From a virus (lineage: Duplodnaviria > Caudoviricetes): a stretch of 60,051 nucleotides of DNA. The first letter of the stretch is position 1, and each line of letters opens with the position of its first letter. The notes below the pieces were generated by a model that worked only from the letters and a program-made list of their open reading frames with translations, ran no database searches and had not been told where the DNA came from. This document shows, one piece after another, positions 9,160 through 37,731 of this stretch. Where the stretch lies: IMG/VR virus record IMGVR_UViG_3300046812_000237, positions 1-60,051 of that record; one strand, 5' to 3'. A program made the translations under genes and the position numbers.

Positions 9160-9160
9160 A

Positions 9161-13267: not shown

Positions 13268-13273
13268 GCGCGG

Positions 13274-13498: not shown

Positions 13499-13584
13499 GT
13501 GTCTCCCCTGTTTGAGAATGAGTAACTGAAAGAGAATTACGATCAGAAAGGCGATGACAATTCCTGAAGGTGCTGGAGGCATGG

Positions 13585-13803
13585 CTATCGGCGGAAAGGC
13601 CAGATTGGGCCATTGCTGAGAGGTAAGGCCATCCCGCTCCATCCGAGAAACACGCCGAGCAGCCATAGCACTACGGCTACGATCACCACAGCGTTAATCA
13701 GTTTCAGAAATGGGGCCCAGATGTACGGAGCTGCATGCTGGTTTATAGCCCACATCAAGACCCCGATTACGACGAGGATCACGATGATCTGAATGACTGG
13801 CAT
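13585..13803 (-). CDS. small two-TM membrane protein (Thivi_2564-like)
   Basis: IIVILVVIGVLMWAIN..KLINAVVIVAVVLWLL. Confidence 0.65.
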   Translation of the reverse strand: MPVIQIIVILVVIGVLMWAINQHAAPYIWAPFLKLINAVVIVAVVLWLLGVFLGWSGMALPLSNGPIWPFRR

Positions 13804-20591: not shown

Positions 20592-20988
20592 TGGATGCCC
20601 TCTTTCCTGTCGCGAACCATCGAATCGTCCGTTCGGTCGGTGACGGCGTAACTCCATCGCTCTGCCAGACGAAAATGTCGATTCTTCCAACCTGCACGGG
20701 ATTCGGTCGCGCGCTCACGATGTCGGTCGACCCTCCGGCATCACCGCTGTCTATCGCCGGAATTACATTAGTCACACTCGCAAGCCCGGTTGCAATTCCA
20801 TTCGTTGAGCCGGTGACCTTGGTAACTCCCGATGCGAGCGCCGGTTGATCGGAAATTCCTGTTCCGACCACCGCTTGATCGTTCAACGTGTAGACCTGGT
20901 CGTAAATAGTCTTCATGTCGAGCGCGAGTTGCGAGTTGCCGGGATAGCTTCCGGGACGATAGCGTTGGGTGTCGTTGGCGGCGCTCAT
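20575..20988 (-). CDS. putative minor tail protein
   Basis: GGAG RBS, ATGA overlap, beta-rich C-terminus. Confidence 0.5.
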   Translation of the reverse strand: MSAANDTQRYRPGSYPGNSQLALDMKTIYDQVYTLNDQAVVGTGISDQPALASGVTKVTGSTNGIATGLASVTNVIPAIDSGDAGGSTDIVSARPNPVQVGRIDIFVWQSDGVTPSPTERTIRWFATGKRASSATSV

Positions 20989-23744
20989 GGAGTCTCCGCC
21001 CCAAATAAGGGACTCACGGCATAGCCTAGGTCCGTCACCCACTGTTTCGCGCGCAATTCGGACTCCGGCTGATAAATCCGGAAGTTCTGCGCGCTATCGA
21101 AGGTGAATCCGGCGAGCTTCTGCTTGTTGGCCAGAAACGAGAAATACAACTTTTTCTTCGCGCCGCTAGTGCTCGGCAGCGTGAAGGTCTGGACCGCTCC
21201 GACGTCTGGCGTGAACGTCAGCGTGACGTCGGCGTTCGAGCGCAGCGTGACGTAACCGTCGCGCACATGGAAAAAGCCTTCGAGGCTGAGAGAGTTGGGC
21301 GGTACTTCCCAGTGCTTCATCTCGGCAGGCTCGACGCGGTACAGGATGTCCATTTGATACAGCGTCGGCGCGATCGTGCCGCCGTCGGTCGACCACTGCA
21401 CGTCGAATGAAATATTGAGACCGTACAGTTCGAGGCCGGCCTGCGTGAGTCCGAGCGCGACCCGCTGCCGACCGTTGCCGGTCACGTGAATCGCCGCTTG
21501 CGATTGCGCGTCCGCGTTGATGTAGGGCGTGATGGTGACGGGATTGGCGACGGTCGCCGCGCCAGGGTCAATGTCGAAGATCACGTCGCCGTATTCCTTC
21601 AGGTTGAGTGGAGCGCCCTGGTCGCGCGCGCCGGTGCGGATGTGCACGGGGATGCTTGCGCCGTTGTCGTCAGTGGCGAGTTTGCCCTCGAAGACCGAGT
21701 TCTCGATGCCTCCGGTGAGTAGCCGCGAAACCGTGCCCTGCTCGGAGTAGTGCATTTGCGCTCTAGAGGTCGCGGCCTCGCCGCGGTAGTAGGCGCGGAA
21801 GCGATTCTTGCGCTCGTCGTAGATGATGGTCTGCCGAGTGCCGGAAGTCTTTCCGGTGTAGTCGAACCAAATTTCCGAGTTGTGACGCTCGAGGCGGAGA
21901 CCGTCCTCATCGTCCATGTTAATGGCTTCGTAACCGTTGGCATCCTTGCCAGGCGCGTCGTAGGTTGGAAACAGCGGACGAATGAAGTCGTCGGCGATCG
22001 ACTGCTCCGCTCCGCCAGCCGTGAGATACCAACCGTCTTTGGCGATGAAGTGGATACCCTTCTCGCCGACGCAGAAGCCCCACCGCCCTTTGAGGCCGCG
22101 CCGGCACTCGGTCTCCTGTGGGGTGAAGGTCTCGCCCTGAATGACGTTGAGCACGAGGGTATAGAGCCGCTCGCGCGAAAAGCAAAATGCTCTCAGATTC
22201 CATGAGAATACGGCCATAGCCTCGGTGCCAGGTTCCGCGACGATGACCCAATTCTGCGGCGGCCAGGCGTCGCCGAGGCCACGCTTGCTGAAGTAAACCG
22301 ACTCGGGCCGGCCTGGATCTCCCACGCCTAGGACGCGCTCATCGAATCCGCAAATCTGCTTGAGCGGTACATTCGTTGCCTGTACCGAACTGACGGGCAT
22401 GTCGTTGTCGAGGTCGAGGATCGGATTGGCTTCGATGCCGGCGTCGGGCGTGTCGTCGTTGAGTTCGAGGTATCCCGCGCCGCAGCCACCCTGTACAAGG
22501 TCGGCGACATTGAACTGTGCCACAAACCGATAGTTGTCAAAGAGCGTGCCGCCGAGGCGGTAGAGGCGAATGACTGTTTCCTGCGGGTCGACGGGAGGAG
22601 CAACGCAAATATTCGCGTCCTGATTTGTCAGGTTGAGACCGGACCCACCGCCCCCCGAGGGCTCTCCTAGTGTCGAGATTTCATAGATCCGCATGTTGTT
22701 GTTAACGCCGCCGGAGGACTCGCCGCATACACCGCGAACCTGTAACTGCGTGAGGTCGGTTCCCGGGGGAAGCGAGACGATGACATGCTGTAGTCCGGCG
22801 GGGGACAGTGTGAGAAAAGCCATGTTCCACGTAACGCCACCGTCGGTGCTGTAATCGACCTCCGTGCCCACGCCGATGACTGCACTGGGAACGTCAAGAA
22901 GCACATGCAGTTCGAGCGAGGTATAGGCGAAACTCGGAGCCGGCCATCCGTACCACGAGCAGCAAGGAACATTGTTTGGAGCCGAGAGACCTTCGGCGTA
23001 TGTCGCCGGGTTGTTATCAAAGGCGTTTGCTGGATTCGCCCACGGGCCATTCGGGCCGACCGTAAACGGTGCCGGATTGACGAAAGTAGAAGGTTGCAGC
23101 GTCTCAGCGGATGGTCCGGCGTCCGTGGAAGCAATCGACGGATTCGATTCGCTCAGGGTGACGGAGTTTACGTAGGTGTACTTCCAGAAGTAGCCCGTCC
23201 CAGTGATCCCGGCGCCTGTACCCACCGATGCGATCGGCTGGACCGTGGGAGCGGGAAGACCGAGTTGTTCATAATAGTTGGCCTTGAACTTCATCATCTT
23301 GTTTCCGTTGGCGATGATTACCCATGCTTGTGGGTCGGCATCGAAGCGAAAGGTAATCATCGACAGCGGCGTGCCGTCGAAGCCTACCGGGAAGGCGGGA
23401 AACGGCACACCGCCGACGGTGTAGTACAACAGTTGCACCGGCACATTGCCGGCAGGCAGAGGCGCCGTCCAGAGTTGCGAGAGGATCCCGAACATGCGCG
23501 CGCCGTTGATCCCCGGCACAATCTCGTTCAGGCGGAACAGGCTGTGCACCGGTGATGAGGTCACGCCGACGTCGCACACTTTGCTGAGACCGTCGCGCGT
23601 GTTGACCTCGCCCTCGATGCGCGACAGGGCGTTCGTGAAATAGCTGTACTGCCCCATCGGAATGAGGTCCGGTGGAAGGTTCAGTTGCAGGCCGGAGTCC
23701 GGGAACTTCGCGACGTCATGGGCATACGGGATTTGGTCAGGCAT
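20985..23744 (-). CDS. tail nozzle/stabilization protein with an inserted beta-sandwich domain
   Basis: 919 aa; YFWKYTYVN..ESNPS, IRLYR..Y, VYFSK..DAWP; position after adaptors. Confidence 0.65.
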   Translation of the reverse strand: MPDQIPYAHDVAKFPDSGLQLNLPPDLIPMGQYSYFTNALSRIEGEVNTRDGLSKVCDVGVTSSPVHSLFRLNEIVPGINGARMFGILSQLWTAPLPAGNVPVQLLYYTVGGVPFPAFPVGFDGTPLSMITFRFDADPQAWVIIANGNKMMKFKANYYEQLGLPAPTVQPIASVGTGAGITGTGYFWKYTYVNSVTLSESNPSIASTDAGPSAETLQPSTFVNPAPFTVGPNGPWANPANAFDNNPATYAEGLSAPNNVPCCSWYGWPAPSFAYTSLELHVLLDVPSAVIGVGTEVDYSTDGGVTWNMAFLTLSPAGLQHVIVSLPPGTDLTQLQVRGVCGESSGGVNNNMRIYEISTLGEPSGGGGSGLNLTNQDANICVAPPVDPQETVIRLYRLGGTLFDNYRFVAQFNVADLVQGGCGAGYLELNDDTPDAGIEANPILDLDNDMPVSSVQATNVPLKQICGFDERVLGVGDPGRPESVYFSKRGLGDAWPPQNWVIVAEPGTEAMAVFSWNLRAFCFSRERLYTLVLNVIQGETFTPQETECRRGLKGRWGFCVGEKGIHFIAKDGWYLTAGGAEQSIADDFIRPLFPTYDAPGKDANGYEAINMDDEDGLRLERHNSEIWFDYTGKTSGTRQTIIYDERKNRFRAYYRGEAATSRAQMHYSEQGTVSRLLTGGIENSVFEGKLATDDNGASIPVHIRTGARDQGAPLNLKEYGDVIFDIDPGAATVANPVTITPYINADAQSQAAIHVTGNGRQRVALGLTQAGLELYGLNISFDVQWSTDGGTIAPTLYQMDILYRVEPAEMKHWEVPPNSLSLEGFFHVRDGYVTLRSNADVTLTFTPDVGAVQTFTLPSTSGAKKKLYFSFLANKQKLAGFTFDSAQNFRIYQPESELRAKQWVTDLGYAVSPLFGAETP

Positions 23745-24417
23745 AGGCCACCCCGCTGGTCATAAACCGCGCCAATTCGACGCCTTCTTCATATCTTTCG
23801 CGACAGTATTGCGCGCGCTCGGGATCCGAGGCCTCGCCCTCTTTAGAAAACATCTCGCCAAGCACACCCCAGACGATATACGGAGTAAAGTCATCCGGGA
23901 TGGACAAGGCCACGCCCGAACCGTCAGCAGTAGCACCGAGCGGCGTGGTGGTGATCTCGGCCTCCCCGATGTCGTTGGGAATCGGTGTAACCCGAACCGT
24001 GAGCGAGGCTAGCAGGTTCAGGAGGTAGGCCGTCGGCACTTGCTGCGAGTCCGCCGACCAGGTTTCGTCGCTCTGATCCTCCTCGAAGGTGTCGGTGGCG
24101 TAGAGTTCGACGTAACCGGTGCCGGAGGGTCCGAAGCGCCAGGCGATGCGCCGCAGGTCGATCATGTCCTGTGGAAGGTCGTACTCTCCTTGTGTCGGAA
24201 CAGACGTGATGAACGAAATCGCCGACACGATGCCGGTGCGGTGCAGGAAGTCCCGCAGGATGTCATTGAGATATTGAAGCACTTGCGCCTGTGACCACAT
24301 CGAGGACCAGGTAACGCCAGCGTCGTCCGGTTCGAGTGTCGCCAGTTGCAGAAGCGATAGCACCTGTTGATCGGTGACCGACCAGGTCTGCGCGGGAATT
24401 GGCGGGTAATCGCTCAC
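23737..24417 (-). CDS. head-tail adaptor-like protein
   Basis: WS..QVLQYLND, EYDLPQD, TPIP, IPDDF..YIVWGVL..FSKEGE. Confidence 0.65.
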   Translation of the reverse strand: MSDYPPIPAQTWSVTDQQVLSLLQLATLEPDDAGVTWSSMWSQAQVLQYLNDILRDFLHRTGIVSAISFITSVPTQGEYDLPQDMIDLRRIAWRFGPSGTGYVELYATDTFEEDQSDETWSADSQQVPTAYLLNLLASLTVRVTPIPNDIGEAEITTTPLGATADGSGVALSIPDDFTPYIVWGVLGEMFSKEGEASDPERAQYCRERYEEGVELARFMTSGVAYA

Positions 24418-25118
24418 CGTGGGCCTACCGGACTACCCTGCTCTGGCGTTATCGCATTTAACATCCAGCGGATGCGCTTCAGTTGCTTGTCCTGCTCAAG
24501 GCCGATGATCCTCCGGTAAATGGCGGTACTTCGCAGCTTCTCGTTCCGCACCACGGCCGCTTTCATAAAGGCCTGCATCGCCGCTTTCGAGGCCCGGAAC
24601 TCCGCTCCGCCTACCTTCACCTGTAGCGTATGGGTGATGTAGTCAGCCAGGGCATTGAAGTCCTCGCGGCCTATGTTGATCTTGTCGCCACCAGCACTCA
24701 CGATCGGCGTGACCGAAACGCCCTTCACCACGAGCACGTCACCGCCGGCTGGCGGTATCGGATTGAGCGCGATGATGCCAAGTCCGACGGGCGCCCACAT
24801 GACCGGCGCCCCCCGGCTACTCATCCAATTCGGGTCTTGCTGGTCCCATTCGAAGACGCTGCCGGGATCGAGGATGATGCCGTTCAGTTCAATGCGCGCG
24901 CCGAACAGGAGATTCGAGCCGAGCGGGTAGTAGGGATGGTTCGCGACGGTCGAGAGCGTCTTGCTTCCGGACCAGAAGCCCGTCAGGCAGTTCCACGTCC
25001 GCAGCGCCGCGTTGGTGTACTGGGTAATCTCGTTGTCCGTCCAGAAGTTCGACGGGCCAAGATTGCCGCGTACAACCGCGATGAACTGCGAAAGCGAGAC
25101 TGAGTTGTACGCCGCCAT
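24414..25118 (-). CDS. head-tail adaptor-like protein
   Basis: FWTDNEITQYTNAAL, YYPL, LNPIP, ALADY. Confidence 0.6.
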   Translation of the reverse strand: MAAYNSVSLSQFIAVVRGNLGPSNFWTDNEITQYTNAALRTWNCLTGFWSGSKTLSTVANHPYYPLGSNLLFGARIELNGIILDPGSVFEWDQQDPNWMSSRGAPVMWAPVGLGIIALNPIPPAGGDVLVVKGVSVTPIVSAGGDKINIGREDFNALADYITHTLQVKVGGAEFRASKAAMQAFMKAAVVRNEKLRSTAIYRRIIGLEQDKQLKRIRWMLNAITPEQGSPVGPR

Positions 25119-27692
25119 TTAGTTCCCGACGCACTGGTAGCGGATGCTGTCGGTTCCCGTCCCGGTAATTGTGAAAGCGCTCCCCGACGACTGCACAATC
25201 TGCGTCGCCTGTGTAGCTGTCAGGTCCGCCGCCGTGCACGTGTAACTGGTATTCGAAGTGAACACCGCCGCCCCGGTCAGCGTCACGGCGCAGCTTGTGC
25301 CCAGTACGCAGCTATCGACTATCGCATGCGCGTTGGTGGCCTGGGTGCCGGAATGATTGTAAAGAATGGGACCGGCCGCGAGATTCGGGACTGGCGTGGT
25401 CGAGGTGATGTCGAGCGGCACCGTGCCCGTGGCGATCGTTATTTTTAACGGGATGGCGGTCTCCCATTGGTTGCTGGCGTTTTCCTTGAGGCATCCATCG
25501 GTGCCGGTGGGATTGGCCTCTGAGCAGATGATGTTTTCGCTGTTGCCGGCCCGGAGCAAGCCGTCGTCGGCCACGTCGGCCACCTGCGGGATAATCATGC
25601 GACTCTGCCCGTTGGTCTGGTCGGTGAGCACCCACTGCTGTGCGGCCGTCTTCCGCATCCGCCACTTGGTCGTGCCGCGGTCGCGCAAGGAGATGCCGAG
25701 GTCCTGCGATACGGTCAGGCCATCGTCGAGGGTAAACTCAAGGGTCGCGTCGAGGAAGTTGCGCGCGGTCGCGTTGCCGGTCTGCGAGACATCGAACACG
25801 TTATTGGTGCCCGTGGTGTCCCGCTGGTGGAATCCCGCGGAGTCGGCGTACCACCAGAGTACGGGCGAGGCGCTGCCAGAGTAGACCCGAAAGCCACCGG
25901 TGCCGCCGTTGGCGACGTTGTTGATCGCAAAGATACCCGTCCCGCGCGTGTAGACGTCCGTGCCGGCGCCCGTGGTAAGAACTTCCCGGGAGTCTCCGGT
26001 GTTCGAGTCGCGCAGCACGAAAGTGTTTGCGGCTGACTTTTCCCAGGCCCACTTGGCTGTGCCCTGGTCGAGCCAGCGGACCGAGCCAATCTGCGAGATC
26101 GACGTGCCGGTATCGCTGATGTCCACGTTCATGGTGGCGTTGGCGTAGTTCTTGATGAGGAACGGCTTGCGCCCGGTGTTGGGCGTGATGACCAGTTCGG
26201 TCGAGCGGTTACCCAAAGCGCCGCGCGCCCCGACCACGAGACCGTCATTCACGACCGCCGTGCCGCCGGTAGTGATGTAGGCGGGCAGCGCATCCTGAAA
26301 GCCGCCGTCTCCGGCCCAGGACCAGTCCGAAAGGTAAGTGCTCGAAGTCGCATAGGACTCGCTCGTGACTGTGTTCGAGACCGCCACGACGGTAGCGCCA
26401 GTCGTGCGGAGGCCCTTGATCTGCACGTTCTTGGTGAGTTGGACGCCGGTTTCGTCAATCTCGACCGCGGTTTCGCTCGCCCCGTTCATCTGAATCTCGC
26501 TGCCATGCAGGAGCACGTTGCCCCAGTTATTGATCTTGAGGCCGATGGCGCTGTCGACGCTCGCCTCCATGTAGGTCGAGATGTCGGTATCGCGGCAGCG
26601 CTGCGCCCCGCCAGAGTCTCCGGCAAGTTCGATGCTCGGCTGACCCGTTCCCGGGAAGTTGTAGACTCCGCCAAGGATCTGCCCGCCGAGCAGGGTGTGA
26701 CCGTCACAAGCGAAAACGAGCGGTCGTGCGCCGACCTGCGATCCCTCTACCCACACGTTGTCGAGCAGGAAGGGCCCGGAGATGCCGCTCGTCGACCCGA
26801 TGCGGACTCCGATCGTGTTCTTGAATTGCATGACCTTTACGTCCCGGAAAAGCGGCTGGTTCAGGACGCCGTCAATGTTAATCATGGCCGTGTGCACAGC
26901 GCCGAACAGGACTCCGTCGGCACCGTAGACGAGGAAATTGTCGAGCGCGAAATAGTCCTGTCCGGTCTCGCCGTTGCTGATGACCGAATCGACATCTGCC
27001 GTCGAGGAGACGATGATCGTGGCACCCCCGGTCGACCCGTTGGCCGACGTCGAGTTGCCCACGTTGAACCCGACAATGCCCCCGCCGTTATGGACCACGA
27101 TGCACGAGCCGGTGGGACTGTTCACGTTGCAGGTCAGAATCGTGTCCGGGTACATCTGCAGCGTCACGGGCTTGGTCGCGCTGCCAAGGTCGATCTGCGA
27201 GGTGAAGGTCTCGCGGTAGTGCTGCGGCGTGCAGACGATGCCCCCGGTACTCGGCAGCGCCGCCACCGCGGCCGCAATGTTCATGTAGGTCGAACCGTCG
27301 ACACAGAGGATGCCCGTGGAAGGTGGGACCGTCAGGAGGTCGATGTTGTTGACCGTGTACGGCGTCAGCGCGGGCGTGCCGCCGGACAGGCGCACGTCAT
27401 AGGAGTTGCCGGCCACACCGTAGAAGCGCCAGGTGCCGTTGGTCGCCGCGGCGAAAGGGTTAGCCTTTGCGCCACCGACGTTGTTCGTGTAGATGGTCGC
27501 GATGTTGGTCGTGCCAGCGTCGTACACCGTGACCGTGCAGCTCGCCGAAATAGCCTGATCCCCGGGCGCGCCAAGCTGGAAGCAAAAGCCGTAGTTGTCC
27601 CCGGGTATCGGGATATAGGTCTGCGCCCGCGCCGCACTGGCACCGAACGTCAGTGCCAGCACAGCGAGGACGCTAAAGAACAAGCGTCGCAT
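25119..27692 (-). CDS. tailspike/receptor-binding protein with N-terminal Sec signal peptide
   Basis: GGAGGAG RBS; MRRLFFSVLAVLALTFGASAARA|Q; virion-attachment-like TVYDAGTTNIATIY..NPF..NG.WRFY; beta-helix-like core. Confidence 0.75.
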   Translation of the reverse strand: MRRLFFSVLAVLALTFGASAARAQTYIPIPGDNYGFCFQLGAPGDQAISASCTVTVYDAGTTNIATIYTNNVGGAKANPFAAATNGTWRFYGVAGNSYDVRLSGGTPALTPYTVNNIDLLTVPPSTGILCVDGSTYMNIAAAVAALPSTGGIVCTPQHYRETFTSQIDLGSATKPVTLQMYPDTILTCNVNSPTGSCIVVHNGGGIVGFNVGNSTSANGSTGGATIIVSSTADVDSVISNGETGQDYFALDNFLVYGADGVLFGAVHTAMINIDGVLNQPLFRDVKVMQFKNTIGVRIGSTSGISGPFLLDNVWVEGSQVGARPLVFACDGHTLLGGQILGGVYNFPGTGQPSIELAGDSGGAQRCRDTDISTYMEASVDSAIGLKINNWGNVLLHGSEIQMNGASETAVEIDETGVQLTKNVQIKGLRTTGATVVAVSNTVTSESYATSSTYLSDWSWAGDGGFQDALPAYITTGGTAVVNDGLVVGARGALGNRSTELVITPNTGRKPFLIKNYANATMNVDISDTGTSISQIGSVRWLDQGTAKWAWEKSAANTFVLRDSNTGDSREVLTTGAGTDVYTRGTGIFAINNVANGGTGGFRVYSGSASPVLWWYADSAGFHQRDTTGTNNVFDVSQTGNATARNFLDATLEFTLDDGLTVSQDLGISLRDRGTTKWRMRKTAAQQWVLTDQTNGQSRMIIPQVADVADDGLLRAGNSENIICSEANPTGTDGCLKENASNQWETAIPLKITIATGTVPLDITSTTPVPNLAAGPILYNHSGTQATNAHAIVDSCVLGTSCAVTLTGAAVFTSNTSYTCTAADLTATQATQIVQSSGSAFTITGTGTDSIRYQCVGN

Positions 27693-27706
27693 GGGACTCC
27701 TCCGTC

Positions 27707-27901
27707 TTAGGCGCGCTTTGCGCCGCCGAGGTCGTCGTAGAAAGTGACCGTTTCGGTCTCGCCCGATTCCTTGTGCTCGGATCCAGGAATCTCGACCCCT
27801 CCGTGTACGACGCCAGCGCCGCCGCTGCGGTCGCCGGGATTGCCGCACAACTCATCGACCGGTCCCTCATAGAGCTTCTTGTCAGGCTTGTCGTATGCCA
27901 T
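27707..27901 (-). CDS. small acidic hypothetical protein
   Basis: GGAGG RBS, 64 aa. Confidence 0.55.
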   Translation of the reverse strand: MAYDKPDKKLYEGPVDELCGNPGDRSGGAGVVHGGVEIPGSEHKESGETETVTFYDDLGGAKRA

Positions 27902-27910: not shown

Positions 27911-29137
27911 CTAGGCTAAGAAATCATGGTCCTGCTGAAAATCGGCGCCCGGCCATAGCGCGTTGGCGTAGGGCAGGCCGAGTTCGTACTCCACCAGCGT
28001 CGAGTACACTTCCTCGTCCTCGCGCATCATCTGCTGGATCTTGCCTTCGAACTTGGCTTCCCACTGCTTTGAGGCGTCCAGCGAATACATGGGGTTCTTC
28101 TGGTCCGGCAAGCCTTGCCAGCGGGCAATGTCCGCCAGACCTCCCCAGATCATCGTGTCGCCGTCGATGTACCGCGGCAGCGCCCAGTTGGGATCGTCGG
28201 TGTCCGGGAAGCGCTTGTCGTACAGGTACGGATAAACGCGCGCGCTCAGTTGATACGGCCAGAGTTCGAACATCGGCATCGCCGTCTTGTACCCGGGCGT
28301 CACCTGAATAACGAAGACGTCGTTGAGCACGTAAGTCCCCGCCGGGAACTGGATGTTCACGCCCTGGTCGAAGGGAATCGGCTGCGTGGACGTCGGAAAG
28401 TCGGTCGAGAATGAGCCGTTGTCTTTCTTCCACGCGAACGTCGAAGTGCCCACTACGCCCCCGGTGGTGATCTTGATGACGTAGGTGGACAGCGAATAGC
28501 CGGTGTAGAGACCCGAGGCGAACGGGCTCGGGCCTGCTCCAACGACCTGTACGCACGGCCCGACCGACCCGATGGGATTGGTGGTCGGATTGTAGGCGAG
28601 GTCAGCTAGGCAGTACGGCGTCCCGGAGTTGGCGCGCTGCGCGTCGATTGAGTCGATGTACTTCTGCGGCACGTGGGTCCGCAGCCGCCAGTTCATCGCC
28701 GTGTCCTTCACCGAGAGAAAGTCCTGAAAGTCGTTCGGGTTGGGCGTGATGTAGGCGGTGAGAATCTGATAGCCGACAGCGGCAGCGGATAGTCCGCCGT
28801 AGACCTCGTTGATCTCGAGTTGCGTCGCGCTGTTCACTGCGGCCACCGTGTAGATGGGTGCCACGGTGCCCACGCGGAACTGCCGACCGATGAGGTTCGC
28901 GTTCCACGCGGTCGCAGTGCCGTTGACGATATTCGACCCGCGCACGACGGTGATGGTTCCGGTCTTATAGACGTCTTCGGTGAGGAACTGCGACTGGCCA
29001 ATGCGCCACGACCAGAGCTTCCGGTAACGGATGTCCCGGAAGCGGTACTTCACGAAATTCTGAGCGAGGGCGATCGGGAGTACGGGGCAGTATAGTCTTA
29101 GCGAACGCCAAAGCTGCTGACTAGTTTCCTGCGCCAT
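27911..29137 (-). CDS. adaptor/neck-like virion protein with inserted beta domains
   Basis: GTITVVRGSNIVNGTATAW insert, ELWPY; position after capsid genes. Confidence 0.55.
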   Translation of the reverse strand: MAQETSQQLWRSLRLYCPVLPIALAQNFVKYRFRDIRYRKLWSWRIGQSQFLTEDVYKTGTITVVRGSNIVNGTATAWNANLIGRQFRVGTVAPIYTVAAVNSATQLEINEVYGGLSAAAVGYQILTAYITPNPNDFQDFLSVKDTAMNWRLRTHVPQKYIDSIDAQRANSGTPYCLADLAYNPTTNPIGSVGPCVQVVGAGPSPFASGLYTGYSLSTYVIKITTGGVVGTSTFAWKKDNGSFSTDFPTSTQPIPFDQGVNIQFPAGTYVLNDVFVIQVTPGYKTAMPMFELWPYQLSARVYPYLYDKRFPDTDDPNWALPRYIDGDTMIWGGLADIARWQGLPDQKNPMYSLDASKQWEAKFEGKIQQMMREDEEVYSTLVEYELGLPYANALWPGADFQQDHDFLA

Positions 29138-29984: not shown

Positions 29985-31055
29985 TTATCCAGTGATCCCG
30001 TAGAGTTGGGCGTGGTAGCGTGGGTTCAGGGTGATGGCCGCAGCCGCGAGAACCTGCCCCGCGACCTTGGTGTTGCCCTGAGCCGGCTTCCAGCCGGTAA
30101 AGCCAAACGAGAACTTCGGCGACTTCGAGACGTAGAAGTTGAAGAACGGCTTGCGCGCGTTCATCCACCAGAGAGTTTCGGAGGTCACCGTCGGGTAAAC
30201 GACGACTGCTCCGTTGCTCATCTGCGTCAGGTAGGTCACCGCGTTGGGGTCACCGGTGCCCGAGATGTACGTCCCGGGCGCGTAGCGGGTGGCAATGAGC
30301 GTCGCAGAATTGAACTTCAGACCGTTGAAGCCGATCTTCGGATCCTGCGTGTCATTGAACCGCTGCTGCGTCTGGAACTTTTCCTTGATGTAGGCCAGGC
30401 CCTTGCGGGTGGTCACACCGAGGTTGGGCTCGATGTTGCCGAACGAGGCGTTGCCGTAGGTGTTTTCCAGAGTCGAGTACTGGATGGCACCGTTGACGTT
30501 TGTGGGGACGCTGTTCAGCGCCGAGCCTACCTGCCCACCGCGGGTGATTCCGCCGTAGGTCGCGTAGGTAGCGCCATCCCAGGAAGCCGTCGAATTGTCA
30601 TTCAAGGCCTCGGCGAGACCGTTGAAGTTGGGGGTGTAGCCTGCGGCCTGCCCGTTCAGGTAGATCGAGATGCCCATGAACGCGCCCATCGTCAGATAGG
30701 CGTTGGTCATGCGCGAATCCACCAGGCGGAAAGCCGCGAGCGGGCCGGTGTTCAACACTTCCATGTCTTCGAGGGAGAGCGTGACGTTCACCTCGTAGAA
30801 CTTCATGTTGAACTGGCAGCCCTGTTCGACCTGTTTTTCCGTGATGTCGAACTGCTTGCCCTTCAGATACGAACCGCCGACCATGCCGTCGTAGTAGAAG
30901 TTCTCTTGGATGAGAGAGCCTCCACCAAAGTCCTCGCGGGTGTTGACCTTGAAATAGGCCAGCGCCGGGTCGGCTTGGAAGATCGAGTCGACCAGTTGAG
31001 GACTCTCGCGGATGTAGCGGCGAGTAGATACGTTCAGTTGATCCAGTTCAGCCAC
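29985..31055 (-). CDS. major capsid protein
   Basis: 356 aa after scaffold; LVDSIF..GGSLIQE, YLNG..FNGL..YGGITR, GFNGLKF, HAQLYGITG. Confidence 0.85.
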   Translation of the reverse strand: MAELDQLNVSTRRYIRESPQLVDSIFQADPALAYFKVNTREDFGGGSLIQENFYYDGMVGGSYLKGKQFDITEKQVEQGCQFNMKFYEVNVTLSLEDMEVLNTGPLAAFRLVDSRMTNAYLTMGAFMGISIYLNGQAAGYTPNFNGLAEALNDNSTASWDGATYATYGGITRGGQVGSALNSVPTNVNGAIQYSTLENTYGNASFGNIEPNLGVTTRKGLAYIKEKFQTQQRFNDTQDPKIGFNGLKFNSATLIATRYAPGTYISGTGDPNAVTYLTQMSNGAVVVYPTVTSETLWWMNARKPFFNFYVSKSPKFSFGFTGWKPAQGNTKVAGQVLAAAAITLNPRYHAQLYGITG

Positions 31056-32877: not shown

Positions 32878-34104
32878 TCACGGAACTACGGCAGTCGCGT
32901 TCGCGGTTTGTCCGTTTGGTCCCGTCGCGCTTACCGGGAAGCGTGTTCCCGTGGGATTGTTGGTCTGCGTGATCGTGCAAACGAGGTTGCTGCAGGTCAT
33001 CGACATCGTAGCCAGGGGCGCGGTGATCGTGACGACGGCGCTCCCGGACTTGGTTGGGTCTGCGACGCTGGTAGCCTTGGCAGAGAAGGCTGTCCCTGGT
33101 GTCGTGCCTGCCTTGTAGAGGCCCGTAGTGTCGATCGTTCCGCCGGTTGCCGTCCACGTCACGGCCGTATTCATCGTTCCACCTACTGTAGCGGTGAATT
33201 GCTGAATCGCGTTTTCGGCCAGCGTCGTCGTCGCAGGAGAAACTGTGACGGTGACGGGCTGCGTGCCGGTCGGCAGGAAATTCACGTCTACCCAGTAATT
33301 CGCGGTGGGCGAGGAAAGTTTGGTCGGATACGCGGAGGTCGAGCCATAGGCATACACGCCCGCGCTTACAGGTGCGCTGAGAGGCCCCACCACAAGTGGC
33401 GTCGTGAACGCTGGCTCGTTCCAGGCATACTGCGCCGTGTGGATGCTGGCGGTGTAGACCATGCCCGGCGTGATGATGATGGGCGAGGGGAAGGTGAACG
33501 TCTGCCAGCCAGATACCGTCTCGTTCGTGAACGTGCCGTTGCCAAGGCTATTTCCATTCGGGTTCCAGAGATGCGCGGTGTGCGGGCCGGTGGCGTTGGT
33601 CGCCTTGAAGAACTTGATGCCGACGATCTCACCAGGCACCGAGGTGGAGAACTTGATCCCGAGTTCGACCGAGTTGCCATCGTTGCCGGTCACATTCGCC
33701 GGTAGCTGCGTGTTGGGCCAGAAACTAAGCGTGCTGCCGCCGCCGCCCGTGCTGCCTCCGGGAATCGTCGCAGACACTTCCACCGAATTAGCCGACTCAT
33801 TCCCGAGCGAATCTATCGCCGTGATGACGTAGTAATAGACCTGCCCCGCCGCGATCGAAGTGTCGAGATAGGACAGCGTCGTGATGACCGACGTGTTGAG
33901 CGTAACGTAGGGTCCGCCGCTGGTATTGCTGCGCTTGGCGTTATAGCTGACGACGTTCGGCGTGACCGAAGCAAGCCAGGTCAGCGAGACTGAGTGCGTG
34001 GTGACTTGTGCTGCCGGTGCGCCGGGCGGGGTCGTGGCCGCAGCACGCGCAGCGAATGGAACAAGAAGCAGTGTCAGGAGCGCCAGTTTTAGAGTGTGCG
34101 ACAT
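32878..34104 (-). CDS. exported protein: signal peptide + FN3-like + DUF4082-like + Ig-like domains
   Basis: KLALLTLLLVPFAARA; HSVSLTW..YYYVITAID..ES; SVELGIKF..GIKFFK..HLW..GWQ..NYWVDV; VTVSP..QQFTATV..VTW. Confidence 0.8.
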   Translation of the reverse strand: MSHTLKLALLTLLLVPFAARAAATTPPGAPAAQVTTHSVSLTWLASVTPNVVSYNAKRSNTSGGPYVTLNTSVITTLSYLDTSIAAGQVYYYVITAIDSLGNESANSVEVSATIPGGSTGGGGSTLSFWPNTQLPANVTGNDGNSVELGIKFSTSVPGEIVGIKFFKATNATGPHTAHLWNPNGNSLGNGTFTNETVSGWQTFTFPSPIIITPGMVYTASIHTAQYAWNEPAFTTPLVVGPLSAPVSAGVYAYGSTSAYPTKLSSPTANYWVDVNFLPTGTQPVTVTVSPATTTLAENAIQQFTATVGGTMNTAVTWTATGGTIDTTGLYKAGTTPGTAFSAKATSVADPTKSGSAVVTITAPLATMSMTCSNLVCTITQTNNPTGTRFPVSATGPNGQTANATAVVP

Positions 34105-34430
34105 ATTCTTATGAGGTCCTTCCTCGTGCCGCCTGCGATTCCGAGCCGTCTGAGCAATTCTCCGACGTGAAACTTGGCCGTGCGCTCGGTGATGTTCAGA
34201 GCCGTGCCAATCTCTTTATTCGACATCTCTTGCAGTATCAGATTCAGCACTTCCCGCTCACGTACTGTAAGGTACACGTCTATGGGAGACGCGGTGCGCT
34301 CATCAATCTCGCGCTGAATTGCCATGATCTGCGCAGGCAGCTCCACCAGTTGCCTGTGACGCAGCGCATCCCGCTGGACAATAAGGTCGTCCAGGCTGCG
34401 GCGTGCCGGATTTAAGATCGTAACGCTCAT
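34089..34430 (-). CDS. LuxR/GerE-type HTH regulator without a receiver or ligand domain
   Basis: LTVREREVLNLILQEMSNKEIGTALNITERTAKFHVGELLRRLG. Confidence 0.9.
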   Translation of the reverse strand: MSVTILNPARRSLDDLIVQRDALRHRQLVELPAQIMAIQREIDERTASPIDVYLTVREREVLNLILQEMSNKEIGTALNITERTAKFHVGELLRRLGIAGGTRKDLIRICRTL

Positions 34431-35740
34431 GGCCCGGTGATGAAGTTCCCTAGCTGCCCGCCTGCCGTGGTGATGCCCTTGAACGAGGCGACGCTGATTC
34501 CCCAGTTGACTGTGCCGCCCGTTGAAGCCGAAACAGTTTGTGCTCCAGACGGTGCGTTCGCGCGAAACTCCTGCATCGGATTGCCTGATGCGTAACTCGG
34601 CGTGGCGACGTAGTTGGTGCCGACGGTGAGTAGCGGGCCGGTGTTGGTGATAGCGATGGCGGCGTTAAAGTTTCCAGCCAGTGCTGGCGAGAACGATGCA
34701 CTCGTGACGCTGGTAGCGCCGGTGGCCGTGCCGATTTTGCCCGTCTCACAGGCTCCTAATTGCACGCCAGAGACCTCCAGCACAACGACACGGTTGAAGC
34801 TGCCGCCGGAACCAAACGTGACCGTAGTGACATCAGTAGCGTTCGTGTTCGTGTTGCCAGTTGTCTCCCATATTTCTGTTGCAAACTGTGTGTTCTGCCG
34901 TGAGCCGGAGCACTGCGCCCAGGTGTCGCCAGCGGTGTTGGCGATGCCCGTGACAGAGATACCTGTGCCACTAATGTCAGTCATGGCCACAAGTTTGTGT
35001 CCGGCAGCGTGAGAAGCCGCAGCGGAGGCTACAGTGGTTGCGGTCGTGCCCGAGCCAGTGACTTCATCTATCAGGCATGCCCCAGTCTGGCAAGTGCGAA
35101 TCTCTAGAACCGCCGTGTTCCACGGGGCACTGGCGTTGACGCCCACGGTTTGCGTGGTGAATGCGCTCACAGGGGCATTGGTGTCGGCGCAGGAAACACT
35201 GTTTCCGGTGACACTCGTAACCGTGGTCATCCCGGTCGGTGCTTGATTCACGTTCGTCGCGGTGTTGCTGCCGCCGCAGCCGATGACCCAGGAGGTAGCG
35301 TTTGTGTTCGTGAGCGTGATGCCTGCGTAGGAAAGCGTCGCGTTGTTCACGTTGTCGGTGACGGTCGCGCCACCCACGCTGACCGATTGGCAGGTGAGTC
35401 CTTGGTTCACGCCGCGATAGACAAGAATGATCGTCCCGCTGGCGTTGGTAAATCCGGTGCCCGTCTCGGAGGATGTCTGTGCGATCTTGCACGCCACACG
35501 GGCAGACTCACTGGAACCCGTCGCGCCGGAAATACTTACCCATCCCGCTGGAAGGTTAGGCGCGGTAGAGTTGCCACTGCGGTAGGCGTAGGCAACAAAC
35601 AGATCCCCGGCGACGTGAGCTGGTGGCGTGCATCCGGTGCTGGCCGCCTGGCATGAACCCACGCGCGTAATTGCCGTGATGGCCTGTGCCGGACGAGCCA
35701 GCAACAGAAGTGGCAGAAGTAGGAGTAGCAACTTTCGCAC
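34427..35740 (-). CDS. exported Thr/Ser/Gly-rich two-domain beta protein (putative receptor-binding or decoration protein)
   Basis: MRKLLLLLLPLLLLARPAQA signal peptide; 10 Cys. Confidence 0.65.
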   Translation of the reverse strand: MRKLLLLLLPLLLLARPAQAITAITRVGSCQAASTGCTPPAHVAGDLFVAYAYRSGNSTAPNLPAGWVSISGATGSSESARVACKIAQTSSETGTGFTNASGTIILVYRGVNQGLTCQSVSVGGATVTDNVNNATLSYAGITLTNTNATSWVIGCGGSNTATNVNQAPTGMTTVTSVTGNSVSCADTNAPVSAFTTQTVGVNASAPWNTAVLEIRTCQTGACLIDEVTGSGTTATTVASAAASHAAGHKLVAMTDISGTGISVTGIANTAGDTWAQCSGSRQNTQFATEIWETTGNTNTNATDVTTVTFGSGGSFNRVVVLEVSGVQLGACETGKIGTATGATSVTSASFSPALAGNFNAAIAITNTGPLLTVGTNYVATPSYASGNPMQEFRANAPSGAQTVSASTGGTVNWGISVASFKGITTAGGQLGNFITGP

Positions 35741-36168
35741 TAGCGTGTCACCCGGAAATTCAGTGTGACCGTACCTCCAGGAGTGATGTCAGCCCCGGTG
35801 CGGTTGCAAACTTTCACGTTTACCGTGTCAGCGGTCGGATAGGGAACCAGAAGAAGTCCTCCCGTGGTGGCTCCGGTATAGCCGGTCACGCCTGTCGGGT
35901 CTGCGTTGATAGTTAACTGAATCGTGTCCGTGGTGAGCAGGCCGGTTGCCGCTGCGGTTTGAGCCGTGCCACAGGTGCCGGAGGTCACGGCGGTCGTGTT
36001 GAGCGCGAGCGTGCCGCTGGCCACCGTCTTGGTCGCAGTGTAGTAGACCCGGCCCACGGTGGTGTCTTGGACCTGCGCATGCTGGACGGCAAGGTACGGT
36101 CCAGTTAGCAGCAAAGCAGCGACCGAAATGTAGAAGACAACTTTGGCAATTCTATCGAGTCTTCGCAT
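35740..36168 (-). CDS. exported or membrane-anchored beta protein
   Basis: Basic N-terminus plus hydrophobic stretch; fibre-tip-like C-terminus; 2 Cys. Confidence 0.6.
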   Translation of the reverse strand: MRRLDRIAKVVFYISVAALLLTGPYLAVQHAQVQDTTVGRVYYTATKTVASGTLALNTTAVTSGTCGTAQTAAATGLLTTDTIQLTINADPTGVTGYTGATTGGLLLVPYPTADTVNVKVCNRTGADITPGGTVTLNFRVTR

Positions 36169-36170
36169 GG

Positions 36171-37115
36171 TCAGCTCCTCTGGAAGCCGATGCAGGAAAA
36201 TGTGTACGTCTTGCCCGTAGTCGGTGTCCCGTGCCAGGTCATCGCGAGCGTGGTCTGCGCGGGAGTGTTGTCTATATCCGATCTGATGTCGTTCCCGCCG
36301 GTCTGCGAGCAGACGTAAATCGGAGTCGATGCTCCTCCGGTGTCAAAGTCACCGTCCGCGTAGGTGTAGGTGATCGTCGGGTTAGCCGCGATACCCGTGC
36401 CGCCGGTTGTGATCGTGAAGATGAAAGCGTTGTCGCTGCCGCCGATCGTGCCTGCCGCCGCTGTGCTGCCCCATCCCGCGCCGAGGGCAAACGACATGGA
36501 AGTCGGCGACGTAGTGTAGTCTGCGCTGAAGTTCAACCGGCCGAGTTCCATGGCCCGGCTTCCGGAGTTGATGTTGAACCCGGTCTGTTTGGCGCTGTGC
36601 GTCGTTATCATCCCGCTGTTGCCGCTGCCCGGCGCAAAGGCAAACGTCGTTGTATCGGTGGTGTCCGTCGCATTGCAGTACACGCCACCGTCGTTCTCGT
36701 TCGCGCAGTTCCAGTTATTACCCATGGGTGCGGCGGTATTTGTTCCACCCATGAAACCAGTGAACGTATTGGTCTGGGTAAAGTAAATATCGCAAGGGTC
36801 TCCGCTGCCGTCGCAGTTCGCGATGTTGGACGAGGTCTGATTCACACCGCCGAAGCTGCCGGTGTTGTTGAACTGAAGTTGGGTGGGAGACCCTCCCGGT
36901 AGCGCACCGCCGCCGGCGCTGCCCACCTTCACCCAGACGCCAGCCACGCAGTCGTACAGGTCGCCAGTAGCGGAGTTGATGCCAAAGGAAAATGGAGCAC
37001 AGGCGCCGGTAGGCGCACCTGTGAAGCGAATCGTCGTGGTGTTGCCGTTCTGCGCGCTGGCCGTGACGGCGCCGAAACTCAACAGGAGCAGAAGCGCTAA
37101 CAGTGCTTTTTTCAT
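36171..37115 (-). CDS. tail-fibre-like protein with signal peptide
   Basis: GAGG RBS; MKKALLALLLLLSFGAVTASA|Q; PGGSPTQLQFNNTGSFGG fibre-type motif; 8 Cys. Confidence 0.7.
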   Translation of the reverse strand: MKKALLALLLLLSFGAVTASAQNGNTTTIRFTGAPTGACAPFSFGINSATGDLYDCVAGVWVKVGSAGGGALPGGSPTQLQFNNTGSFGGVNQTSSNIANCDGSGDPCDIYFTQTNTFTGFMGGTNTAAPMGNNWNCANENDGGVYCNATDTTDTTTFAFAPGSGNSGMITTHSAKQTGFNINSGSRAMELGRLNFSADYTTSPTSMSFALGAGWGSTAAAGTIGGSDNAFIFTITTGGTGIAANPTITYTYADGDFDTGGASTPIYVCSQTGGNDIRSDIDNTPAQTTLAMTWHGTPTTGKTYTFSCIGFQRS

Positions 37116-37117
37116 GG

Positions 37118-37438
37118 CTACCTCGTGGTGATCGTTGCGCCGACCAGCGTTGGTCCTGCAGCGCTGGCCACCAGATAGATTTGCCTGAGCAGGAGCAGGT
37201 TTCCGGTTACTGGCGGAATCGTGACAAACTGCGCGGCTTGTAGCTTTATGCCCCAATGCGACGAGTCGACGTCGCTGTTCCCAATGTAGACGACGACAGC
37301 CATGCCGTCCGGATCCTCCTGTAACTCGACCGACTCGGCATGGTCCTCGATGTCCGTGTCGATCGCGTGCAGGAGGGAGTACAAAGACTGCGCGACGTTG
37401 GTAACGCTTACCGCCAGCATGCGTGGCGTGGCTCTCAT
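37118..37438 (-). CDS. small beta-rich virion-associated protein
   Basis: VYIGNSDV..GIKL..LRQIY. Confidence 0.5.
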   Translation of the reverse strand: MRATPRMLAVSVTNVAQSLYSLLHAIDTDIEDHAESVELQEDPDGMAVVVYIGNSDVDSSHWGIKLQAAQFVTIPPVTGNLLLLRQIYLVASAAGPTLVGATITTR

Positions 37439-37731
37439 TGTGGTGTTCTCCCCTCGTCCGCCAGGGCTCCCGGCGGTATGGCAATTCGTGACTGCTGCTC
37501 CGCGCGCGCTTGCTGCTGCTGCGCGTTGAACGTATCCCGCGCCATCTCGAGAATCCCGTAAAACAGCATGGGATCCCGCGGCCCGGCCATCTGCAATTCC
37601 CCGCTGGCCACGTTGTAGACGATGTGCAGCTCGACCGAGGCCTGCTTTTGGTCGACAGTGCCCTTGGCCCGCGCGAGGATGCTCTGCAAGTCGGCGGGCA
37701 GTCCCCCGTTTACTTTTGTGGGATCGACCAT
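37435..37731 (-). CDS. hypothetical protein
   Basis: Directly after the portal stop; AGGAG RBS. Confidence 0.55.
   Translation of the reverse strand: MVDPTKVNGGLPADLQSILARAKGTVDQKQASVELHIVYNVASGELQMAGPRDPMLFYGILEMARDTFNAQQQQARAEQQSRIAIPPGALADEGRTPQ

Follow-up and report, generated by a model that had tools for sequence, protein, structure and literature searches.

A leader and conserved cysteine pairs on a tailspike-like protein of a soil podovirus point to possible extracytoplasmic maturation of part of the virus

The window, meaning the whole stretch of DNA that was analyzed, is the complete viral genome of a soil phage (60,051 bp). A sequence-only reading of this DNA had placed an 857-amino-acid ORF with a GGAGGAG ribosome-binding site at positions 25119 to 27692. 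The length and the ribosome-binding site stood, but the strand needed specifying: the gene runs on the minus strand from 27692 to 25119 (857 amino acids plus stop), and a plus-strand reading of the same interval was rejected because that frame is crowded with stops. Upstream of the gene, the stop of the preceding 64-amino-acid ORF lies at 27707 to 27709. When the whole 857-amino-acid protein was searched, no match was found in Pfam (E ≤ 0.01) or PHROGs, and a PDB sequence search returned antibody light chains by chance only (E > 0.1).

Scanning 39 ORFs of the genome placed the gene in a podovirus tail module (Table 1). The module is SU10-like in that two adjacent ORFs match PF24175 and that portal and major head protein PHROG matches lie upstream. 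At least one structural gene (portal, head protein, 408-amino-acid fiber-like protein, adaptor, or 919-amino-acid protein) was also present at 31 of 33 related viral loci. The 408-amino-acid neighbor, which had no PDB sequence match, is conserved from end to end in relatives and therefore looks adaptor-like rather than hypervariable. Because this neighbor is conserved throughout, the variable, specificity-bearing proteins would be those with leaders. The 919-amino-acid protein had no Pfam, PHROG, or PDB sequence match; from its position, it is possibly a nozzle. Among the 39 ORFs, a scan that was not exhaustive, there was no integrase, and the lysis genes were represented by a single weak Rz-like match (E = 0.0045). 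The tail module is not the only part of the genome that codes for exported proteins.

Table 1. Features of the tailspike-like gene and its neighbors in the 60,051-bp window
Feature	Coordinates	Strand	Remarks
408-aa protein	27911..29137	-	Upstream; T7-type tail-fiber N-terminal segment at residues 56-127; PHROG matches, e.g., phrog_1980 (E 1e-7)
64-aa ORF	27707..27901	-	Between the 408-aa gene and the tailspike gene; own RBS; no family match; no match in related loci
Shine-Dalgarno GGAGGAG	27697..27703	-	4 nt 5' of the ATG (27692-27690); read from the sequence
Predicted signal peptide, residues 1-23	27624..27692	-	Arg-Arg n-region, hydrophobic core, A-R-A before Gln24
N-terminal beta-sandwich (N-domain), residues 24-125	27318..27623	-	Cys37/Cys52 pair; AF2 model pLDDT 80.4
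Right-handed parallel beta-helix body (model), residues ~126-440	26373..27317	-	Cys130/154, 188/197, 329/366
Residues ~441-745	25458..26372	-	Poorly modeled, pLDDT mostly < 50; common to full-length body homologs
C-terminal domain (C-domain, 110 aa), residues ~746-857	25122..25457	-	Cys795/801, 819/854; pLDDT ~87-96 for 775-857
Two consecutive SU10-type tail adaptor genes	23737..25118 (24414-25118 and 23737-24417)	-	Directly downstream; PF24175, E 2.4e-8 and 1.4e-15
919-aa tail protein	20985..23744	-	After the adaptors; conserved in relatives

The tailspike-like protein begins with MRRLFFSVLAVLALTFGASAARA, which is followed by QTYIPIP. Arg2 and Arg3 give the n-region a net charge of +2, residues 4 to 21 are uncharged and hydrophobic (mean Kyte-Doolittle value, 2.13), and A21-R22-A23 followed by Q24 agrees with the cleavage-site rule, which asks for a small residue in positions -3 and -1 and bars proline from +1. 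No lipobox for signal peptidase II was found, as the leader is free of cysteine and the first Cys is residue 37. Tat signals carry the motif S/T-R-R-x-F-L-K, and their n-region is longer and their core only mildly hydrophobic. The R-R-L-F-F start of this protein is faintly Tat-like; what speaks against a Tat signal is that its n-region has only three residues, its core is strongly hydrophobic, and K-R is found in 4 of the 10 closest homologs. We called the signal peptide from rule-based features together with conservation, and the one proposed in the sequence-only reading (basic n-region, hydrophobic core, A-R-A) has all of the textbook features and is conserved in homologs.

By our own heuristic, leader-like starts were present in 15 of the 16 homologs from the first search and in 33 of the 38 database proteins that bear the N-domain. 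By eye, three of the five misses in the latter set also have a hydrophobic leader, and P0044 and P0075 (2 of the 38) begin without one. Inspection by eye of 33 viral loci from IMG/VR showed a leader-like start in every one: immediately ahead of the domain in 32, and in L010, where the domain is internal, still at the start of the ORF. A stricter script, which considered only ORFs of at least 250 amino acids, flagged a leader at 25 of 34 loci. The check that homologs retain the signal, which the sequence-only reading had called for, thus came out in its favor both at the viral loci and among the N-domain proteins. Across divergent homologs, the leader is kept as a feature and not as a sequence, with similar AxA-type sites. 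Judged from these comparisons, the leader is more than a product of chance. Because an export signal on a tailspike-like protein is kept across relatives, maturation of the virus may be partly extracytoplasmic.

The start codons of this gene and its relatives bear on whether the protein has a dual fate, with part of the pool exported as a free enzyme and part remaining cytoplasmic and being built into particles, as a second start in some relatives might allow. Several homologs have a Met at the predicted cleavage site or beside it (L015, L017, L018, L029/L030, P0046, and P0101), and the two leaderless N-domain proteins begin at the cleavage-site position, P0075 having only 2 Cys. Most homologs, however, lack such a Met, and the gene in the window offers no ATG, GTG, or TTG in frame between codons 12 and 55. 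A leaderless isoform with an intact N-domain is therefore impossible here, and we rejected a second start for this gene. We consider a dual fate very unlikely.

The sequence-only reading had counted 14 Cys, mostly in nearby pairs. The count is confirmed (residues 37, 52, 130, 154, 188, 197, 329, 366, 723, 734, 795, 801, 819, and 854), and all 14 are retained in a 70%-identical homolog; in addition, the cysteines are gained and lost pairwise and track the presence of the leader. Among homologs, both members of pair 795/801 are present in 31, one in 1, and none in 24. For pair 819/854, the corresponding numbers are 46, 5, and 2, and for pair 37/52, they are 20, 3, and 19, with Cys37 absent in some leader-bearing homologs (e.g., L005, L021, and L027). 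With leader classes assigned by eye and body columns taken from pairwise alignments, pair 188/197 was complete in 11 of 13 body homologs with a leader and in none of the 11 without one (Fisher P = 3.1e-5, in a test that ignores shared ancestry). This comparison used 24 of the 30 body-matching proteins; those left out were P0021, a 179-amino-acid fragment identical to the window's own protein, and P0022, P0031, P0040, P0119, and P0159, which have no Met start. Automatic leader classes on a multiple alignment were rejected, as several rows, P0027 and P0034 among them, were misjudged, and the alignment was wrong in columns 130/154. Cysteine density was 1.81% in the leader-bearing body homologs and 1.06% in the leaderless ones.

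Structural disulfides do not form stably in the reducing cytoplasm. Because the leader is kept in relatives, the cysteines are conserved, and pair 188/197 tracks the leader, export to an oxidizing compartment is well supported, and from these patterns we infer actual export, cleavage, and disulfide formation. The same data speak to the possibility that infection makes no use of the leader for export and that the protein, with its N-terminus retained or otherwise removed, goes through cytoplasmic folding and assembly as ordinary tailspikes do. This could happen if Sec were shut down or saturated late, or if the leader served for membrane tethering near assembly sites or for membrane contact in infection. 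Body homologs without a leader do exist, which means that the fold can mature in the cytoplasm, and the P22 tailspike is reported to go through transient Cys chemistry there (PMC3357383). Against this, the small residues at -3 and -1 are conserved across divergent homologs, which points to signal-peptidase cleavage; pair 188/197 is complete only where there is a leader; and the cysteines vanish pairwise, as structural disulfides would. An unused leader is, in our estimate, distinctly unlikely.

The N-domain was compared by structure. The protein contains the motifs TVYDAGTTNIATIY, NPF, and NGTWRFY, on which the sequence-only reading had based a resemblance to head-binding domains. The best VIA-align match to the N-domain model was a tail-complex component of cyanophage Pam1 (PDB 7eeq chain A; Z 8.4, rmsd 4.1 over 90 residues, 20% identity), followed by P22 gp9N (Z 7.9 and 7.6) and Sf6 gp14N (Z 7.4), with 85 to 93 residues aligned at an rmsd of 3.4 to 5.1 among the top matches. 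P22 gp9N and Sf6 gp14N rank 2 to 5 of 48,161 chains, at Z values below 8.5 that may reflect a common arrangement only, and generic beta-sandwiches come next in the list at Z 6 to 7. The Foldseek top 10 consists of the same proteins, at E values of 7e-3 or weaker and none ≤ 1e-3; the components from Pam1 and cyanophage Pan3 (9vyg) take ranks 1 to 3, and the P22 and Sf6 domains were matched at E values of 0.06 to 0.3 (probability, 0.9 to 0.99). In the ESM Atlas, Head_binding clusters appeared at 0.80 to 0.83, which we treat as a lead only, and the Pfam Head_binding family (PF09008) had no match in the protein at E ≤ 0.01. A carboxypeptidase-regulatory/transthyretin-like N-domain, as in bacterial outer-membrane proteins, was rejected, since its Z values (6.2 to 6.3) are below those of the phage tail domains and the domain hardly occurs outside phage DNA. 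At Z values below 8.5 and E values above 1e-3, the resemblance held in two independent aligners, and the model suggests an N-domain that folds like the particle-binding domains of podovirus tailspikes and tail fibers.

The distribution of the N-domain fits this assignment. It is 60 to 69% identical in P0004 to P0010, whose bodies (477 to 888 amino acids) are unrelated. Parts that have to fit a virion typically show this pattern of a constant N-domain and exchanged bodies. A scan of 185,579 species genomes for the N-domain gave three loci only, and L037, the sole one long enough for a synteny check, is a fragment of the same phage clade.

The body, which had been read as beta-helix-like, was modeled as a beta-helix of the tailspike/depolymerase type, and Foldseek agreed. 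In 10-residue means, the pLDDT of the monomer model is ~86 to 98 up to residue 330, apart from two isolated lower blocks, and ~55 to 75 for residues 330 to 440, with short strands throughout residues 126 to 440. Foldseek matches to the body were the tailspikes of Sf6, P22, and CBA120 (TSP2) and GH28, GH87, and PL enzymes (E 3.8e-5 to 1e-2); eight PDB chains, including the Sf6 and P22 tailspikes and GH28 enzymes, had E values ≤ 1e-3. Homologs P0023 to P0025 align over residues 117 to 847. The C-domain is widespread at the C termini of mostly leader-bearing proteins, and most of the 150 matches listed cover residues 745 to 857 only.

In complex predictions, both adaptors with three N-domains scored 0.43 (runs, 0.49, 0.43, and 0.00), and the best of three controls scored 0.01, which lends weak support to their association. 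The partners had pLDDT values of 67 or higher, and agreement between the runs covered at least 6% of contacts. In calibration, 58 of 80 solved complexes reached the mark, as did 2 of 110 mismatches; only 7 of those 80 solved complexes, but both passing mismatches, reached it with a score of 0.60 or less. Because similar P22 and Sf6 complexes have already been solved, the pass may reflect likeness only. Given these caveats, the predicted complex makes the SU10-type adaptor a candidate docking partner.

The only cultured relatives that we found for this ~60-kb podovirus are the Tunturi podoviruses of Acidobacteriota. Tunturiibacter phage Tunturi_2 gp12 shares the N-domain (40% identity over residues 52 to 123) and also has a leader. 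All three large fiber/spike candidates of Tunturi_2, gp12, gp13, and gp14, have leaders, with 20, 10, and 21 Cys, respectively; seven other Tunturi_2 gene products read, including the portal and major head protein, have 0 to 5. Burkholderia phage BgManors32 gp48 shares the C-domain (45% over residues 777 to 857) and has a leader too, which is found on none of 10 other BgManors32 gene products read. Because BgManors32 is annotated with baseplate genes, the leader feature is not confined to podoviruses. The annotations of these proteins go no further than hypothetical, tail fiber, pectin lyase, or tail protein, and the main text of the Tunturi paper does not contain the terms "signal peptide," "mass spectrometry," or "structural protein."

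The main competing explanation is that the protein is an exported free depolymerase and not part of the virion. Such an enzyme would trim or destroy host exopolysaccharide or O-antigen in the periplasm or envelope, and this could ease release, stop progeny from sticking to debris, or block superinfection, with adsorption left to other tail proteins. The leader and the disulfide evidence fit a free enzyme equally well. A bacterial precedent exists in WceF of Pantoea stewartii, described as a Tat-exported, trimeric beta-helix that cleaves the exopolysaccharide stewartan and has a P22-head-binding-like N-domain on an enzyme that is not part of a virion; WceF is also among the fold matches to our N-domain (VIA-align Z 5.4, rank 46; Foldseek rank 38). 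Furthermore, the genome has the exported proteins outside the tail module mentioned above, and relatives have as many as four ORFs with leaders in a row, of which most lack the N-domain. However, the N-domain stays conserved while bodies swap among related phages, its best fold matches are virion-docking domains, and it is nearly restricted to phage DNA. No other large, variable, leaderless protein was seen in the tail module, where the 408-amino-acid protein is conserved throughout, and none of the three large Tunturi_2 candidates lacks a leader. The complex prediction, at 0.43, adds weak support for adaptor binding. We judge a free depolymerase to be rather unlikely.

Several known systems share parts of this arrangement. 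Like the protein described here, P22 gp9 and Sf6 gp14 have a particle-binding N-terminal beta-sandwich followed by a right-handed beta-helix (N-domain Z 7.4 to 7.9; body E 3.8e-5 to 2e-2), and their genes lie in a podovirus tail module beside the adaptor. The P22 and Sf6 tailspikes, which lack a signal peptide, mature in the cytoplasm and form no stable disulfides. In contrast, the present protein lacks a PF09008 match, and both its leader and its seven Cys pairs are conserved. The Pam1 and Pan3 components, the best N-domain matches, come from phages with unrelated hosts and genomes, and no report of a leader on them was found in the literature searched. WceF is the sole tailspike fold behind an export signal described in that literature; it differs in being encoded by a bacterial gene in an exopolysaccharide biosynthesis cluster, with a 28-residue Tat signal and no phage part, whereas in the present case a phage tail module holds the gene, the leader appears to be of the Sec type, and phages share the N-domain. 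Sec-exported and SAR endolysins are phage late proteins that are taken across the inner membrane by the host Sec system ahead of lysis. They differ in being enzymes of lysis, with no place in the virion or in host recognition, and they have no fold in common with this protein. In the open-access texts searched, signal peptides were mentioned only for endolysins, PVC cargo, and general counts and not for a tail fiber or tailspike.

Tailed-phage particles are taught as cytoplasmic assemblies, and to our knowledge, the only phage proteins that use host export are lysis, exclusion, and filamentous-phage coat proteins. Our preferred reading, which we put a little short of an even chance, is that the gene encodes a modular, tailspike-type, receptor-binding and polysaccharide-degrading protein of a ~60-kb podovirus that is exported, matures in the periplasm, and is then joined to particles. 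The protein would be made with a cleavable Sec-type signal peptide and exported by the host translocon late in infection. It would then lose the 23-residue leader, leaving Gln24 as the new N terminus, fold with up to seven disulfides in the oxidizing periplasm, and probably trimerize. Its P22/Pam1-like N-domain would dock on the SU10-type adaptor ring of tailspike-less particles. Because particles and periplasmic contents must first meet, docking would be possible only after holin lesions or lysis. Purified P22 tailspikes can be added in vitro to tailspike-less heads, and late addition outside the cytoplasm is therefore biochemically plausible. Joining the virion at or after inner-membrane lysis is what we infer from the N-domain fold, body swapping, tail-module synteny, restriction to phage DNA, and the weak complex prediction.

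For the wider group, we think it possible, though somewhat doubtful, that a clade of soil podoviruses that includes the Tunturi phages exports its host-recognition proteins via Sec, that these acquire periplasmic disulfides, and that the spikes join spikeless particles after the inner membrane is breached; at least one Burkholderia baseplate phage may do likewise. Because the Tunturi phages and their nonpathogenic hosts are in culture, this is directly testable. If the protein is instead a free enzyme, it would be a phage-secreted, receptor-destroying enzyme built from a tailspike, which would itself be new. If the proposed route through the periplasm is true, ORFs with leaders in tail modules ought not to be written off as morons, and such spikes would probably misfold when expressed in a reducing cytoplasm, a warning for annotation and engineering. 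The disulfide-stabilized spikes would be suited to harsh soils, and the last assembly step of these tailed phages would be a new one, extracytoplasmic and coupled to lysis.

The window is a whole viral genome (60,051 bp; CheckV completeness 100%) with direct terminal repeats of 127 bp. Read on the plus strand, the frame at 25119-27692 is closed; the tailspike gene lies on the minus strand, where the 857-aa ORF proposed in the sequence-only reading is confirmed: it opens with an ATG at 27692, runs for 857 codons, and is closed by the stop codon at 25119-25121. The proposed GGAGGAG ribosome-binding site is found 4 nt 5' of this ATG, directly after the stop codon of a 64-aa ORF. The protein begins MRRLFFSVLAVLALTFGASAARA, then QTYIPIP, and has the signal-peptide features described for it. 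Two Arg precede a hydrophobic stretch free of charged residues (mean Kyte-Doolittle 2.13), and positions -3 and -1 are both Ala. The leader contains no lipobox and none of the 14 Cys, which all belong to the mature protein. Because the gene has no in-frame start codon from codon 12 to codon 55, no full-length molecule can lack the leader.

An exhaustive HMMER search returned 1,193 proteins at E ≤ 1e-3, split over three parts of the query (residues 1-125, ~120-745, and 745-857), the last being by far the most commonly matched. P0003 (860 aa) is 70% identical to the target from end to end, and seven other homologues (P0004 to P0010) are 60 to 69% identical over the first ~120 residues only, followed by different bodies (477-888 aa). 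A full-length AlphaFold2 model (70-row alignment) had a mean pLDDT of 67.5, with mostly good confidence at residues 50-120, ~125-440, and 775-857 and poor confidence at ~440-750. The suggested beta-helix body was recovered by Foldseek, with eight chains at E ≤ 1e-3 (best, 3.8e-5) and matches to the Sf6, P22, and CBA120 tailspikes and to GH28, GH87, and polysaccharide-lyase beta-helices.

Residues 24-130 modeled alone (60-row alignment) gave a pLDDT of 80.4 and a pTM of 0.73. VIA-align, run independently of Foldseek against 48,161 representative chains, ranked the Pam1 tail machine first (7eeq_A; Z 8.4, rmsd 4.1, 90 aligned), followed by P22 gp9N in situ (Z 7.9), the P22 hub:tailspike complex (Z 7.6), the P22 head-binding domain (Z 7.6), and Sf6 gp14N (Z 7.4). 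Below these came generic beta-sandwiches (Z 6-7) and WceF, the exopolysaccharide-cleaving enzyme of Pantoea stewartii (Z 5.4). The Foldseek top ten were the same phage proteins, none at E ≤ 1e-3, and the nearest ESM Atlas clusters were viral, including Head_binding clusters at 0.80-0.83, which serve as leads only. Given top-ranked phage domains at modest scores and no Pfam Head_binding match in the target, the claimed likeness to podovirus tailspike head-binding domains is moderately upheld in the modeled fold but not at the family level. The leader-bearing tailspike architecture itself is regarded as established.

The leader is widely kept. A rule-based test was passed by 15 of 16 first-search homologues and 33 of 38 proteins with the N-terminal domain; three of the five failures (P0018, P0109, and P0122) have hydrophobic leaders by eye. 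Homologues starting downstream of the leader had been named as a counterindication, and two exist (P0044 and P0075, which begin at the domain), against the 33 that pass; of these two, P0075 contains just 2 Cys. In IMG/VR, a pattern scan found 66 matching stretches, 33 of them encoding relatives. By eye, all 33 viral loci have an M-K/R-hydrophobic-AxA start, directly before the N-terminal domain in 32. The exception is L010, whose domain lies inside an ORF, but that ORF too begins with a leader. A stricter script (ORFs of ≥ 250 aa) flagged leaders in 25 of 34 loci, failing mostly on short or truncated ORFs. The leader sequences diverge yet keep their features, which points to functional selection.

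In several homologues, Met occupies the predicted cleavage site or a position adjoining it (L015:9914, L017:10046-10052, L018:8135, L029/L030:9929, and proteins P0044, P0046, P0075, and P0101). As P0044 and P0075 start at that point, both exported and cytoplasmic forms might be produced in some relatives; such a dual fate for the target protein is improbable. Separately, five loci of related phages carry two to four consecutive large leader-bearing ORFs (L026:7423-14473, L028:9839-17478, L013:9788-17952, L018:8078-14794, and L034:10001-14340), with the N-terminal domain usually confined to the first. Such runs suggest either a multipart exported fiber apparatus or several secreted enzymes.

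The cysteine pairing seen earlier also holds among relatives, and P0003 keeps all 14. In the 70-row alignment, Cys are gained or lost together: 795/801 are both present in 31 rows, singly in 1, and absent in 24; 819/854 in 46, 5, and 2; and 37/52 in 20, 3, and 19. Some proteins have the beta-helix body after an ordinary N terminus without a leader, and we compared 24 full-length body homologues by pairwise alignment (six fragments dropped; leader classes by eye). Both Cys of the 188/197 pair are present in 11 of 13 leader-bearing versus 0 of 11 leaderless proteins (Fisher p = 3.1e-5, ignoring shared ancestry), the latter having Met, Ala, Leu, Ile, or no aligned residue at position 197. Cys density is 1.81% versus 1.06% (Mann-Whitney p = 0.001, again ignoring shared ancestry). 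This leader-linked pattern is the one that export to an oxidizing compartment would predict. Export and disulfide formation are rated likely, and maturation in the cytoplasm despite the leader is a distinctly unlikely alternative.

Judged by its predicted neighbors, the gene is inside a podovirus-type structural module (see the table). At least one of the portal, head, 408-aa, adaptor, and 919-aa genes is present in 31 of the 33 viral loci, many of which are on 58- to 66-kb contigs. In these loci, the N-domain gene is always within the tail module, but its site varies: on either side of the adaptor or beyond the 919-aa gene. The 408-aa neighbor is conserved at full length in relatives, which marks it as a fixed structural part and the leader-bearing proteins as the variable ones. 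A scan of species genomes (one genome per species, 185,579 species) gave 391 pattern matches, only three of them relatives, all on MAG contigs; the L037 fragment (11.6 kb) belongs to the same phage clade, with a head protein at E 6.6e-152 and a leader. The window's adaptor ORFs (234 and 226 aa) are separate with a 4-nt overlap; of the 24 related loci in which an adaptor was found, 23 have a single ORF of ~440-475 aa that matches both (e.g., L005:11942-13264 and L007:11614-12960), and the remaining one, L019, has two. The difference may stem from a split, a duplication, or an insertion.

Features of the window
Feature	Position	Strand	Remarks
Sugar-metabolism cluster	6252-12643	plus	
UDP-glucose/GDP-mannose dehydrogenase	6252-7544	plus	
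GT1 glycosyltransferase	7924-9159	plus	
Second glycosyltransferase	11056-11850	plus	phrog_14945
FkbM-type methyltransferase	11810-12643	plus	
Candidate lysis genes	12624-13803	minus	
Small ORF	12624-12863	minus	strong hydrophobic segment
130-aa ORF	13274-13666	minus	weak PHROG matches: Rz-like spanin (E 0.0045), membrane protein (E 0.0014)
Small ORF	13585-13803	minus	strong hydrophobic segment
919-aa protein		minus	after adaptor genes
SU10-type adaptor genes	23737-24417, 24414-25118	minus	PF24175
64-aa ORF		minus	between 408-aa gene and target
408-aa protein	27911-29137	minus	T7-type fiber N-terminal segment
Major head protein	29985-31055	minus	structural module
Exported/membrane protein block	32878-37484	minus	between portal and head genes
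408-aa DUF4082 protein	32878-34104	minus	leader; PF13313, E 1.8e-40
LuxR/GerE-type HTH protein	34089-34430	minus	
142-aa protein	35740-36168	minus	N-terminal membrane anchor
~314-aa protein		minus	portal-head block; leader if start is 37115; L007 homologue also leader-bearing
Portal	37732-39603	minus	structural module, first in order
192-aa ORF	46426-47004	minus	initial segment contains G-F-P-C-Q
577-aa protein	56910-58643	plus	DUF3560 (E 1.3e-35) and methyltransferase domain

Among the other genes, the sugar cluster could alter host polysaccharide or phage proteins, and G-F-P-C-Q is a motif typically found in cytosine-5 DNA methyltransferases. Of the 39 window ORFs scanned, none was identified as an endolysin.

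In most Gram-negative podophages, fibers are reported to be carried by the adaptor beta-dock domain (PMC13730344). Complex prediction with both adaptors and three N-terminal domains gave "weak support" at a score of 0.43 (runs of 0.49, 0.43, and 0.00; partner pLDDT ≥ 67, contact agreement ≥ 6%), and controls, including replacement of the first adaptor, reached 0.01 at best of three. In calibration, 58 of 80 solved complexes and 2 of 110 mismatches reached the mark, and scores of ≤ 0.60 came from only 7 of those 80 and both passing mismatches. Since similar P22 and Sf6 complexes are already solved, the score may reflect likeness only. Incorporation into the virion is judged more probable than not. 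The leading alternative, a WceF-like depolymerase that the phage encodes and that is exported but stays free, is considered less likely than not. WceF, bacterial and Tat-exported, is the nearest described case to an exported tailspike, and the literature searched describes no tail fiber or tailspike with a signal peptide. The combined model, in which the target would be exported first and then dock onto particles at or after lysis, is held tentatively, at a little below an even chance.

The only cultured phages matching the window's head protein were Tunturi_1 and Tunturi_2 (27% identity, E 2e-21), podoviruses of the acidobacterium Tunturiibacter (Tunturi paper); the main text of that paper makes no mention of signal peptides or proteomics. 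Tunturi_2 gp12 (1,190 aa) shares the target's N-terminal domain, and leaders are present on gp12 (20 Cys), gp13 ("tail fiber protein"; 10 Cys), and gp14 ("pectin lyase"; 21 Cys); the seven other products read, including the portal and major head protein, are leaderless with 0-5 Cys. In Burkholderia phage BgManors32, the target's C-terminal domain recurs in gp48 ("tail protein"), the sole leader-bearing product of 11 read at its locus; these 11 are mostly tail or baseplate proteins. The annotations of gp13 and gp14 (L001:11411-16158) and gp48 (L002:6294-8249) leave these leaders unmentioned. Through the Tunturi phages, the leader-bearing tailspike is open to testing at the bench.
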